Assembly: GCA_963729715.1 (NCBI GenBank)
Contig: CAVSPA010000007.1
Location: forward strand, 256,001 to 320,000
Reading direction: 5' to 3'
DNA from: an uncultured delta proteobacterium
GTDB taxonomy: Bacteria > Desulfobacterota > Syntrophia > Syntrophales > UBA2185
Length of the DNA stretch: 64,000 nucleotides
In this document: positions 39,001 to 42,000 of the stretch, piece by piece
How positions within the stretch are numbered: position 1 is the first letter of the stretch
Layout: every line of letters starts with the position of its first letter
Position numbers: made by a program

Positions 39001-42000
39001 GATGACTCCTGAGGGTTGCCATTCGCGTCAGGGGGGAGCGTATCGCCAGGTGTATTTACGCTGCTGATAGTAACCTTGACGCCTGAAGGATCAACATCCT
39101 TGAATTCTACGTTGCTCTCCTTGAAACCGTTCGTTTGACTGTTGGCGATATTGTTTGCAGTGACGTCGGTTTGTGTAAAAAAGGCATTAAGGGCGGAAAG
39201 CGATGTATTGAGTGCGTCTGACATAGAACCACCTCCTGTAAGTATTGCTGATTGGTATATCGGCAGTTTCGGGCAGAAACTTTAATTTAATTGTCCTGAC
39301 TTATATTCCTCTTCACAGACACTGTCCAACACATACCACAACAGCCCATTTAAAATTTGTGTGGCGATGCATGCACATTTTCGTGAATAATGATAATAGG
39401 TTGTAATGTAGCACAGAGGTGTTATTTTAGAAAATCAACGTAGGAGAAAGTTATCAAGACGGTAGGTTCTGCCGTTTCGAAAAAATTGTCCTTCCCAAGT
39501 GACTGTTACGGTATCTATAAAGATAGCTATAGGGCCAGCATGCCAGTTTGTTGAATGCGGAATGTAATATACAAAAAAATATACCAAACTTCTTCATTTT
39601 ATGTGTTCGTGAATAGCTTCCTCTTCCGCAAACCACCCTCTTTGATTTTCATTGTAGATTTCAACTGGGAATCGTGATATTCAAAAGTTATATATAAAAG
39701 TCAGAGTTTAAATTTCATAAACCCTTTAACATTGCGTGAGGGTGCTATGGACTGATTGTTGAAACCCCGTTTCTCGAAAGAGGCGGGGTTTTGTGTTTGA
39801 GGAGGTAATTATGAAATGGACCAATAAGATTTTGGGATTTATCTGCCTGTTCCTTCTTATCTTTTGTGCGGCCACGCCTGTTCTTACAGTAAAGAGCGCT
39901 GATATGATGCAAGCGAATCACTCAGCGCTATTAGTGATGGACGTTCAAAACGGAATCGTTCAGCGTTTCGCTGAAAAACCAGAAGTCATGGTTCCATTTC
40001 AACGTGCCGTGAGCGCTGCCCGTCGTGCTGGGATTCCGGTTATTTTTGTTCGTGTCGCGTTCCGTAAAGGCTACCCTGAAGTAAGCGCAAAGAACAAAAT
40101 GTTTTCGGCCATCACAAAATTTGGAAGCATGACCATTTCTGATGCTTCGACGCAAATTCATTATTCGGTAGCGCCGCTTCCGGATGAACCCGTCGTGACG
40201 AAATTACGCGTGAGCGCGTTTGCCGGTAGTGATCTTGAGATTATTCTCCGCGCCCGTAAGATCGACACGCTAATTCTAACTGGTATTGCAACAAGCGGTG
40301 TTGTCCTTTCAACTTTGCGAGAAGCTGCGGATAAGGATTACGGGCTCGTCGTTCTTTCCGATGCGTGTTTACATGCAGATCCAGAAGTCCATCGCGTGCT
40401 GGTTGAAAAGTTGTTTCCCCGTCAGGCGGATGTTTTAACCGTGAGTGAGTGGGCTGACACCTTACTGAATCAAGGAGGATCGCCGAAAAGCTAGCTTCAA
40501 GTGAGCCGTATGTTAGAGAGTAAGAGATATAACCCAAAGTTGTGGACAGGATAAAAAGAAGGCGTATCCTAAATAAGTGTAGTTTAACTTAAAGCCCCCT
40601 TGGCGAGAGGGGAGAAAGAAGGATACGCCCATGGAGAATAATGAACGAGATTATCTGGAAAAGCAAGTTAAAGAAGAATCAAAAAGCGCATTGGAGTTAA
40701 TTATCCGGGAAGGCGCCTGTCGGATGTTGCAGGCGGCCATAGAGAATGAGATAAGTGAGTACATTGAGAGTTTCAAGGATGCGAGAGATAATGGTGGTCG
40801 GCGCATGGTTGTGAGGAACGGGTCCTTACCGGAAAGAGAGATTGTGACTGGCATTGGGCCATTGCAAGTGAAACAGCCCCGCATTCACGACAAGAGAGAA
40901 GGCGAGGCTTTTACCAGCACTATTTTGCCGAGATATATGAGAAGAGTTCCATCAATAGACGCTTTAATACCGGCACTCTATCTTAAGGGGATCTCCACTG
41001 GGGATTTCAGTGAGGCACTAGAATCCATATTAGGAAAGAACGCAACGGGGCTTTCCGCCACAAATATTGTTCGATTAAAGACTCTCTGGGGACAAGATTA
41101 TGAAAACTGGGCGGGGCGGGATCTTGCCCATAAGCGATACGTTTATTTCTGGGCAGACGGCATTTATTTCAATGTTCGTTTGGGAGATGTGGAGAACAAG
41201 CGGCAATGCATCTTGGTCATTATGGGGACATTGGAAGACGGGAAGAAGGAACTTGTTTCCCTTCTTGACGGATACCGGGAGAGCAAACAGGTTTGGCAGG
41301 AGATGCTGCGCGATCTCAAGCAAAGGGGGCTTAAAGAAGGTCCTAAGTTGGCGGTTGGTGACGGCGGCTTGGGATTCTGGGCAGCCCTTCGGGAGGAGTT
41401 TCCGGAAACAATAGAGCAGCGTTGCTGGGTTCATAAGACTGCCAATATCCTGGATAAGATGCCAAAGAGCGTTCAACCGAGAGCCAAGGTTCATATCTGC
41501 GACATGTATATGGCTCCGACCAGGGATGAAGCCTTTAGAGCCTATGATTATTTCTTATCTCAATATCAGGCAAAATATGAAAAAGCATGCGAGTGTTTAA
41601 GAAAAGACAAAGAAAGTCTTTTTGCTTTTTATGATTTCCCGGCAGAGCACTGGCGTCATATCCGGTCTACAAATCCTATCGAATCAACCTTTGCCACTGT
41701 GAGGCTTCGCACAAAACGGACAAAAGGTTGTGGCTCAAGATTGGCAACACTTACCATGGTTTTCAAATTGGCCATGGAAGCAGAAAAGACTTGGCAGAGA
41801 ATCAGGGGGCATAACCTTATCTGCAAGGTCATTGAAGGAATCAGATTTGTTGATGGTGTAATAATGAAAGAAGCTGCTTGAATTTGAAAAGGGTCAGGAT
41901 ACGTTGAAAAATGTCTCATCCACAACTATTGACAATATCCCAGAGAGTAAACCGCAAATACAAGTCTGCGCCTTAGTGATCGGCTCATTTTATTGATAAC

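Follow-up and report, generated by a model that had tools for sequence, protein, structure and literature searches.

A multi-copy module upstream of an isochorismatase-family gene

The window, a stretch of 64,000 nucleotides from an uncultured delta proteobacterium, contains one copy of an intergenic module of about 180 bases at positions 39617-39798 of the forward strand. A previous survey had placed this copy at 39631-39811, and that placement was borne out, with boundaries that are now drawn slightly wider on the 5' side. The module opens with a boundary block (39617..39651), which consists of CTTCCT at 39617-39622 and a conserved stretch that runs up to TTTGATTTTCA. A promoter-like box (39652..39681) follows, in which TTGTAG (39652-39657) and TGATATT (39675-39681) are spaced by 17 nt. 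Downstream lies a leader hairpin region (39699..39757), where the predicted fold pairs GUCAGA with its partner, UUCAUA with UAUGGA and ACCCUU with GAGGGU. This region includes the Shine-Dalgarno-like GAGGGT (39738..39743), which is near-invariant in the copies of this type (type A), and a mini-ORF, ATG GAC TGA (39747..39755), whose start codon is located 15 nt 5' of the terminator stem. The predicted intrinsic terminator (39761..39798) has a stem of 14 bp with a 4-nt loop at 39761-39792 and a T-run that extends to 39798. A GAGGAGG ribosome site directly 3' of this T-run serves the next gene (39811..40494, start ATG at 39811), which is encoded on the same strand and specifies an isochorismatase-family protein (Pfam PF00857, E 1e-39) with a signal-peptide-like N-terminus. 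Further downstream on this strand, an IS256-family insertion with a Mutator-type transposase (40524..41942; 8-bp target duplication GAGAGTAA) is a recent event that has no relation to the element.

The edges of the module are sharp and coincide with CTTCCT on the 5' side and with the T-run on the 3' side. Similarity between copies starts at the 5' boundary block, and none was found upstream of CTTCCT in the 35-copy alignment or in a flank alignment that took in 33 of the 35 full-length copies and left out two copies without the anchor.

Copy number and distribution among relatives

Iterated nhmmer searches identified 13 full-length copies, 7 partial copies (E<1e-8) and 5 weaker matches in this genome, at positions that agree with the copy list of the survey. 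The observation of a multi-copy module is real, and its description as a discrete and conserved unit that carries a promoter-like box and ends in an intrinsic terminator is supported. Matches were present in 31 of 41 genomes (this one counted), among them all 21 genomes of the same family and 9 of 19 genomes from other families of the order. Loci were read in six of these other-family genomes; two contained a second type of element (type B, described below), two contained some other 3' core only and two contained a divergent type A copy. One further other-family genome (G032) showed at least 20 matches. The element had been described as order-wide; for the full element this term is too strong, given what the six loci contained.

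Orientation toward the next gene

Of 35 type A copies, 32 share their strand with the next ORF, while the upstream gene is found in either direction (24 on the same strand, 10 on the opposite strand, 1 without such a gene). The distance from the end of the element to the start codon is at most 35 nt in 21 of 57 copies, at most 60 nt in 32 and at most 105 nt in 46. These values agree with the orientation and closeness to the next gene reported earlier, and at least a dozen unrelated genes in a genome do have a copy that points toward them and abuts them. At distances of up to 35 nt there is no space for another promoter. As in the window, the terminator separates the promoter-like box from the start codon of a gene on the same strand. 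In many copies the ribosome-binding site of this gene comes immediately after the T-run, so that its transcription has to pass the terminator.

Pairs of leader and gene recur across genomes, with isochorismatase, TPR protein, acetamidase-like protein and small protein genes as examples, and they are retained across species and genera. The element together with its isochorismatase gene is 95% identical at four other places, each of which has a different upstream flank. Related genes sometimes use another upstream module. Signal-peptide-like N-termini are predicted for 26 of 57 downstream genes, compared with 22% of genes genome-wide.

The arrangement bears on the possibility that the copies are stand-alone genes for trans-acting small RNAs (sRNAs), with their own promoter and terminator and an incidental closeness to the next gene. 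The unit from promoter to terminator measures about 115 nt and has the anatomy of an sRNA gene, and the orthologous copy at C9, which G005 and G006 share, lies in a gene-poor gap with no more than a small ORF after it. Terminated leaders may in addition act in trans, as is known from work on riboswitch-derived sRNAs. Nevertheless, the same-strand bias and the 21 copies that leave the gene no space for a promoter of its own argue against free-standing genes, and the invariant part of the element resembles a ribosome-binding site and not a seed directed against ribosome sites. An Hfq gene was not found either; PF17209 gave no match in this genome, which is scored 100% complete, while the control search was positive in five reference genomes. 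Taken together, sRNA genes are an improbable explanation, and an Hfq-dependent trans-acting sRNA was rejected. A role as a CsrA sponge was likewise rejected: CsrA is encoded, but type B copies do not conserve a GGA motif.

Metatranscriptome contigs of relatives span the terminator into a downstream gene (X4 record 17, two X3 loose ends) and represent either RNA or DNA carry-over. Six RNA runs contained only 5-11% of the sampled words. The contigs carry no information on start, end or level, and the element was not covered in three of four runs, an absence that has no weight as evidence.

Age of the copies

A miniature mobile element of the Correia/MITE type, or another repeat spread by recombination, could land upstream of genes, resemble a promoter and a terminator by chance and have no selected regulatory role. 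Several features fit such a repeat. The copies are numerous, have sharp ends and are often located in IS-rich variable regions, and the same gene can be found with different leader variants, which implies that leaders were swapped. Furthermore, the 5' motif CTTCCTG(AAGTC) is common to the end of another repeat family and adjoins an IS-like repeat in two genomes.

Other hallmarks of mobility were not observed. Terminal inverted repeats were not detected, as the end-to-end local alignment score of 14 did not differ from that of shuffled sequences (12.2 +/- 2.4, p = 0.30). Recent near-identical copies were not found within this genome, the nearest neighbour of a copy resided in the same genome in only 4 of 27 cases, and mean identity was 0.66 within this genome and 0.68 to copies elsewhere. 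The copies are not grouped by genome and are thus old, retained leaders and not the product of a recent mobile burst. In the three ortholog sets examined (isochorismatase, the C9 locus and one TPR subtype), all orthologs carry the element and no empty site was seen, though filled and empty sites were not searched for systematically. The strong orientation bias and the conservation of specific blocks across families are also at odds with a passive repeat, which we consider very improbable. An integron attC site or gene cassette was rejected, since 33 neighbouring ORFs in three arrays included no tyrosine recombinase of the integron-integrase kind; the place of the element 5' of its gene does not suit a cassette either. 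The unrelated genes that are abutted, the need for read-through, the retained pairs and the age of the paralogs make a cis-acting leader more likely than either a free sRNA gene or a mobile element.

The promoter-like box

The window copy contains TGATATT at the downstream half of the box, where the family consensus is TGATAAT. Column conservation in the 35-copy alignment revealed near-invariant blocks, TAGATTT and AATCGTGATA. A sigma-70-like promoter had been proposed for this region. The box is indeed conserved and promoter-like, but it is a poor sigma-70 match, and a consensus promoter scan placed none of its three sites inside the element and did not flag the box. A promoter is suggested by position and conservation rather than by agreement with sigma-70. 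A second -10-like stretch (TATATA or TATGTA) is present in the early part of the putative transcribed region.

The sigma-28 (FliA) consensus consists of TAAAGTTT, 11 nt and GCCGATAA. FliA and flagellins are encoded in this genome and its flagellar promoters are canonical sigma-28 promoters. The element has GTGATAA where CCGATAA is expected, and a sigma-28 promoter was rejected. A wider use of the box was not apparent from a loose genome scan, which returned 48 matches compared with about 58 expected by chance; the good fits were the known copies only.

Predicted fold and terminator

The RNA from 39686 to 39800 is predicted to fold with -35.7 kcal/mol (z = -3.64), and none of 200 shuffled sequences folded equally well. 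The pairs of the terminator are kept in 93.5% of cells in type A and 99.2% in type B; a few copies (C2:5128 and one in G002) have lost the 3' arm. The strong intrinsic terminator of the survey's finding is upheld as a prediction. The helices of the leader have pair counts of 66-86% per helix, and the conserved hairpin that had been described there shows no covariation above shuffled alignments. For type A, 83.8% of positions were paired compared with 83.4% in shuffles (score 0.119 vs 0.110; 15 of 500 shuffles as high), and for type B the values were 91.9% and 91.7%. RNAalifold, applied to 60 copies of type A and 31 of type B, recovered essentially the terminator only, plus one 3-bp hairpin in type B.

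It had also been suggested that the hairpin buries the Shine-Dalgarno-like motif and the AUG. In type A, the pairing of these positions does not exceed chance (0.61 compared with 0.62 with a shuffled upstream arm), while in type B they are paired to a greater extent than with the shuffled arm (0.74 vs 0.59; 25 of 31 copies). A structure that competes with the terminator, as implied by the earlier idea of an antiterminator, was not found among upstream partners of the terminator 5' arm. The best of them reached -7.5 kcal/mol, compared with -6.7 (type A) and -7.5 (type B) in shuffles and with -16.3 (type A) and -17.9 kcal/mol (type B) for the terminator itself, and no mutually exclusive pairing is predicted.

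A second family shares the 3' core

The type B family, which is new in this analysis, has a different promoter region and the same 3' core, and it also precedes varied genes on the same strand. This core is the reused device and consists of a Shine-Dalgarno-like motif, a start codon 15 nt before the stem, an A/U-rich linker and the terminator. Type B copies carry AAGGGT in the place of GAGGGT, and in both families the motif (GAGGGU/AAGGGU) is located 3-7 nt upstream of the leader start codon. Of 90 copies, 89 have the start codon itself (58 of 59 in type A, all 31 in type B), and its distance of 15 nt to the stem is kept in 51 copies of type A and 26 of type B. Both types accordingly have, upstream of the terminator, a leader ORF that is provided with a start codon and a Shine-Dalgarno motif.

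The length of the frame differs between them. A two-codon ORF that ends 6 nt before the stem is found in 47 of 58 type A copies, while in 23 of 31 type B copies the frame comprises at least 17 codons and runs through the stem. Conserved regulatory codons or a conserved peptide were found in neither type. The second codon of the mini-ORF is variable (GAC 36, GGC 7, GUC 4, AAC 3 and others), and loop indels shift the frame through the type B stem, so that the peptide is not conserved. A hand count of stop-codon changes in the 35-copy alignment gave no clear bias toward keeping the stop. The survey had envisaged that a ribosome on the mini-ORF masks the 5' arm of the terminator. With the stop codon 6 nt before the stem and commonly assumed ribosome footprint sizes, a ribosome that terminates in type A would cover only about the first 4 stem bases, and simple masking would not extend further.

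Candidate factors acting on the leader

An alternative retains the same cis leader but assigns the control of read-through to a dedicated factor other than the ribosome, or regards the terminator as a constitutive, leaky damper. An RNA-binding antiterminator, a NusG-type paralog or a small ligand could then recognise the block from GAGGGU to the terminator base. The near-invariant positions do lie together in an uninterrupted stretch of about 35 nt that includes the exact stem-base sequence, and the partner with which the first hairpin pairs differs among copies. The invariant block is reused by both promoter types. A second NusG-domain gene is also present. Among 41 relatives, NusG matches numbered exactly two in 33, one in 6 and more in 2. 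Most relatives with or without the element thus have the paralog, which gives no co-occurrence signal and is uninformative as a co-occurring factor. Neither a BglG-type CAT domain antiterminator nor a phage Q-family gene was found. Rfam contained no family for the element's own stretch (E up to 10) or for eleven other loci (E up to 1) that included types A and B, and neither a model match nor a covariation-supported aptamer points to a riboswitch. A search for ANTAR domains gave no match, and the control for the same search was blank too. Overall, a dedicated factor or a leaky damper appears unlikely, though less so than sRNA genes or a passive repeat.

Proposed mode of action

On balance, the element is best regarded as a cis-acting expression or attenuator cassette for the next gene, possibly coupled to translation, and it is probably a valve that its unrelated downstream genes have in common. 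The promoter-like box would start a leader of about 115 nt that meets a strong terminator just before the ribosome-binding site of the gene. Most transcripts would end as a short RNA, and the gene would be made only when RNA polymerase reads through. A ribosome that has loaded at the start codon of the leader and follows the polymerase closely may hinder the folding of the terminator. In type B, the leader frame would continue through the stem; in type A, the frame would be cut to two codons, so that a terminating ribosome would reach the stem base only. Read-through would then follow translational capacity. Taken on its own, this translation-coupled mechanism is a tentative proposal that we put forward with less than even confidence.

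More speculatively, and with a somewhat lower expectation, the element could represent a lineage-specific 'universal attenuator'. The portable core, about 60 nt in length, would combine a ribosome-binding site with a start codon exactly 15 nt upstream of an invariant terminator and, in type A, with a two-codon frame. It would be placed behind at least two different promoter modules, and between 15 and 25 accessory genes in each genome, many of which encode exported proteins, would need a ribosome right behind the polymerase. Such a device would sense transcription-translation coupling or spare translational capacity and would do so without an antiterminator helix.

If the element is read rightly, a considerable and diverse part of the accessory genes in uncultured but abundant bacteria of peat, fen and sediment is under the control of one small cis device. 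In evolution, this reusable regulatory part would have been transferred between promoters and genes. It would be a concrete candidate for a two-codon frame with a function and for attenuation that needs no antiterminator, and it would serve as an annotation marker for a hidden regulon.

Comparison with known systems

A full-text literature search returned, in the portions of text that were available, no RNA elements or repeats described for Syntrophaceae, Syntrophus or Smithella. Multi-copy sRNA families with a conserved promoter include the streptococcal csRNAs and the Qrr RNAs, and the element resembles them in that a genome has a number of paralogous units, about 100 nt long, which all possess a conserved promoter-like region and a terminator. 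csRNAs and Qrr RNAs are free-standing genes with conserved seeds, whereas the copies described here are directional leaders that abut the next ribosome site, in a genome where Hfq was not found. Correia elements and other MITEs can carry promoters and terminators. Like these short intergenic repeats, the element has sharp ends, many copies and possible promoter or terminator signals for its neighbours. Unlike them, it lacks inverted terminal repeats and recent copies, is strictly oriented to the next gene and is kept with the same genes across genera.

The late promoter pR' of phage lambda is followed by the terminator tR', which yields the short 6S transcript and is opened by the Q protein. 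The order of promoter, short leader and strong terminator before genes is comparable, as is a second -10-like stretch early in the transcript. The differences are the lack of a detectable Q-family gene and the presence of many chromosomal copies instead of one phage copy. T-box leaders and the c-di-GMP riboswitches of Geobacter are multi-copy cis leaders that define regulons, and there too one architecture with a terminator at the end of each copy stands before many genes per genome. These families conserve an aptamer that is supported by covariation and not the promoter, while the promoter-like box of the element is as conserved as its RNA and no supported aptamer or Rfam match was obtained.

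The element also resembles leader-ORF attenuators. In the pyrBI leader, the frame runs through the terminator stem, as the type B frame does. The vmlR and msrD leaders are ribosome-mediated attenuators with a leader ORF (PMC9226507; 10.1101/2021.11.29.470318). The common feature of the three systems and the element is a short ORF with a ribosome site upstream of, or reaching into, an intrinsic terminator before the gene. The element departs from these attenuators in that it has no antiterminator helix, regulatory codons or conserved peptide, and its type A ORF comprises two codons only and stops before the stem. A further distinction is that a single leader with its own conserved promoter-like box is used by the element for at least 13 unrelated genes per genome.

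Anatomy and distribution of the element

The complete module of the first family (type A) was located by direct reading of the sequence at window positions 39617-39798 on the plus strand, which also carries all of its parts. It opens with the edge motif CTTCCT (39617-39622), followed by a promoter-like box with TTGTAG (39652-39657), a 17-nt spacer and TGATATT (39675-39681). The leader holds GAGGGT (39738-39743) and the small frame ATG GAC TGA (39747-39755), and the terminator comprises a 14-bp stem (39761-39792) with a T-run to 39798. Directly 3' of the T-run an isochorismatase-family gene follows on the same strand, with its ribosome site GAGGAGG and its ATG at 39811. 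A consensus scan detected the terminator and made no call for the promoter box of this copy. The RNA from 39686 to 39800 is predicted to form a long, imperfectly paired hairpin in addition to the terminator, with an energy of -35.7 kcal/mol (z = -3.64) that was equalled by 0 of 200 shuffles. In aligned copies, similarity sets in abruptly at CTTCCT(GAAGTC) and stops at the T-run. Conservation is strongest for TAGATTT and AATCGTGATA in the box, for TGAGGGT, ATGG, GATT and GAAACCCCGT in the leader and for CGGGGTTTT in the terminator. Two type A copies, C2:5128-5287 (L008:2503-2662) and the one at locus L025, have a degenerate 3' terminator arm and may represent natural always-open variants.

Iterated nhmmer searches of the whole genome yielded 13 full-length copies, 7 partial ones at E<1e-8, and 5 weaker matches. 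These fall at the same places as the copies reported by the survey, whose observation of a multi-copy element stands. A 196-nt blast query, with up to 20 matches listed per genome, matched 31 of 41 related genomes (this one counted), including 21/21 of the same family and 9/19 from other families. When 185,579 species genomes were scanned by pattern, 111 stretches were returned, 80 of which were checked with the element profile: 74 fit, one of them marginally (E 6e-4), and 6 were chance matches from unrelated phyla. Almost all true matches come from MAGs with the label Syntrophales, Syntrophaceae or delta-proteobacterium; the labels of three name other phyla, possibly through binning errors. 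Cultured strains were absent from the matches checked.

A common 3' core behind different promoter modules

About half of the extra pattern-scan matches fit the 3' part of the element only, and 35 such copies make up a clearly defined second family of ~120 nt (type B), 31 of which were aligned. Its upstream region, containing TTGACT, is unlike that of type A, as is its highly conserved leader interior, where GGTTAAC and its flanks are nearly invariant. From AAGGGT onwards its 3' end follows type A, with a start codon, then a linker rich in A/U that includes GATTA, then the identical terminator. Type B occurs in this genome at C6:124237-124298 (minus strand) and C3:373934-374012 (plus strand) and is known from several families of the order (also L040, L042, L044, L045 and many of the loci L069-L147); varied same-strand genes likewise lie downstream. 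No Rfam family matches type A or type B. Some copies of the type A promoter part lack the core, such as those ahead of a caspase gene and hisB. The latter copy (C6:327690-327797, minus strand; L017) consists of promoter box and early leader without terminator and lies directly upstream of hisB, whose start codon is 7 nt past the position of the mini-ORF start. Because the core recurs behind another promoter region and the type A promoter part recurs without the core, promoter modules and core are separable parts, the core being the common one.

Relation to the downstream genes

For 32 of 35 type A copies (those of this genome and the best copy from each of 22 others), the ORF that follows shares their strand; the gene upstream does so for 24, lies on the opposite strand for 10 and is absent for 1. 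Where a downstream ORF could be seen (57 non-identical type A copies), its start codon follows the element end within 35 nt in 21, within 60 nt in 32 and within 105 nt in 46. Genes within 35 nt would have to be transcribed by read-through of the terminator, since there is no space for a second promoter and ribosome site. We lean towards reading the element as a cis-acting promoter-leader-terminator cassette with the shared 3' core as attenuator; a family of free sRNAs fits more poorly and is considered improbable. The genes behind the element are unrelated to one another (isochorismatase, ankyrin-caspase, tyrosine-phosphatase-like, TPR, PAS, LexA-like, Ig-like and unknowns). By our own simple hydrophobic-N-terminus rule, 26/57 products are predicted to be exported or membrane-bound, compared with 22.1% across the genome (3,272 ORFs); when recurrent families are merged by eye, the count becomes roughly 19-20 of ~47. 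The ankyrin-caspase gene behind one copy has many paralogs with ~70-74% DNA identity (C4:695437-698554, C6:19511-23365, C5:425927), a lineage-specific caspase expansion.

Element and isochorismatase together (window ~39641-40523) recur with 95-96% identity at four other places, in the relatives G008, G003 and G004 and on contig 13 of this genome, each with a different upstream flank. The same gene is preceded by two leader variants, so copies have swapped leaders. In five genomes of at least two genera the element precedes one TPR gene subtype, whose sister subtype has a different upstream module instead, and the contig 9 copy has orthologs in G005 and G006. A purely selfish repeat would also be multi-copy, but identity is 0.66 among the copies of this genome and 0.68 between genomes, the nearest neighbour lies within the same genome for only 4/27 copies, and no inverted repeats were found at the two element ends (p = 0.30). 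This explanation fits less well than the cassette and is very improbable; the copies are best seen as old leaders rather than a recent mobile burst.

Neighbouring repeats

A second repeat family of ~135 nt (BOX2), unmatched in Rfam, is represented in this genome by 8 copies (C10:109478-109613 (L002:2374-2509), C2:7082, C4:533180, C10:111118, C8:6470, C4:12123, C3:328176(-) and C4:11156). Of 41 genomes searched at E<=1e-28, only this one, G003 and G008 gave matches. Its 3' end AACTTCCTG is the motif that opens the type A element, and both adjoin directly at C10. In the window, an IS256-family insertion with a 416-aa Mutator-type transposase (40524-41942, plus strand) lies 21 nt past the isochorismatase stop codon, flanked by the 8-bp target duplication GAGAGTAA. 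At least four other identical full-length copies and two pieces at contig ends occur in the genome, and the insertion site is uninterrupted in four other genomes. Past the IS, positions 41951-42636 hold a BOX2-like stretch, CTTCCT and a module resembling a shortened type A promoter region, without hairpin or terminator; a module akin to it precedes the element-free TPR subtype (L180, L182; G009:C243, G018:C303). At loci L059 and L060 (G004:C17, G006:C81), all that is present of the isochorismatase region is its final 101 nt (window 40423-40523), together with the downstream BOX2-like stretch and joined to unrelated sequence; the arrangement resembles what a deletion or recombination would leave. 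A repeated segment of 1.5 kb that contains a 429-aa ORF (C4:692139-693639; L003:1000-2500) ends exactly at an element 5' edge; copies are 98% identical at C3:320503 and 92% in G006, and a single match in G003:C72 crosses the same junction. Within the 1.1 kb before the window element, which is otherwise poor in ORFs, lies an orphan 115-aa ORF (38877-39224, minus strand) with flagellar basal-body rod N- and C-terminal motifs, with ~70% identical DNA in several relatives.

Leader structure and the small reading frame

RNAalifold predicted essentially the terminator alone, with one additional 3-bp hairpin in type B. Imposing the fold of the window copy on 60 type A copies gave pairing in 83.8% of cells versus 83.4% after shuffling and a covariation score of 0.119 versus 0.110 (15/500 shuffles as high); our three-helix model of type B gave 91.9% versus 91.7%. 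The copies are too similar for sequence comparison to prove the leader helices or to disprove them. The survey had proposed that a hairpin buries the ribosome site and start codon. In type A these are paired no more than with a shuffled upstream arm (0.61 versus 0.62; 29/57 copies higher, p = 0.73), and the proposal holds at best for type B (0.74 versus 0.59; 25/31 higher), where p = 6e-5 is overstated by relatedness of the sequences. No upstream segment competing with the terminator as an antiterminator was found.

A start codon is present in 58/59 type A copies (55 AUG, 2 GUG, 1 UUG) and 31/31 type B copies, at exactly 15 nt from the stem in 51 and 26, respectively. The two-codon frame occurs in 47/58 type A copies; taken together, the 58 frames end in UGA (48), UAA (4) or UAG (1), or stay open to the stretch end (5). 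In 23/31 type B copies the frame has at least 17 codons and crosses the stem. No peptide conservation was found in the leader frames, the second codon being variable. A genuine site of ribosome loading, kept at a fixed distance from the terminator, would fit these observations, and so would the simple conservation of one sequence block. Within the cassette reading, translation-coupled read-through would be our first, tentative choice.

Candidate factors, expression and relation to known systems

Ranked next, and rather doubtful, is control by an unknown factor or a constitutive damper. In this genome, scored 100% complete, no Hfq, phage Q or BglG-type CAT domain was found; ANTAR gave no match in a search whose control was also blank. 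A CsrA gene is present in the flagellar cluster, and a second NusG-domain gene is shared with most of the 41 relatives, with or without the element. FliA is present as well; the element box was rejected as a FliA promoter, the real FliA promoters here being canonical and different from it.

Six RNA runs contain 5-11% of the sampled words. Among metatranscriptome contigs, which give no starts, ends or levels and may stem from DNA carry-over, one from a relative (X4 record 17) leads from a leader variant through the terminator to an isochorismatase-like gene, and two loose-end contigs from relatives (set X3) run likewise into other genes. A near-identical contig (X1 record 1) starts just past the T-run.

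Nothing on the element was found in literature listings and the beginnings of abstracts. It is a new, uncurated family within a known kind of control element, among which its conserved promoter-like box, its two-codon frame and its lack of an antiterminator would, as read from the sequence, be unusual traits.
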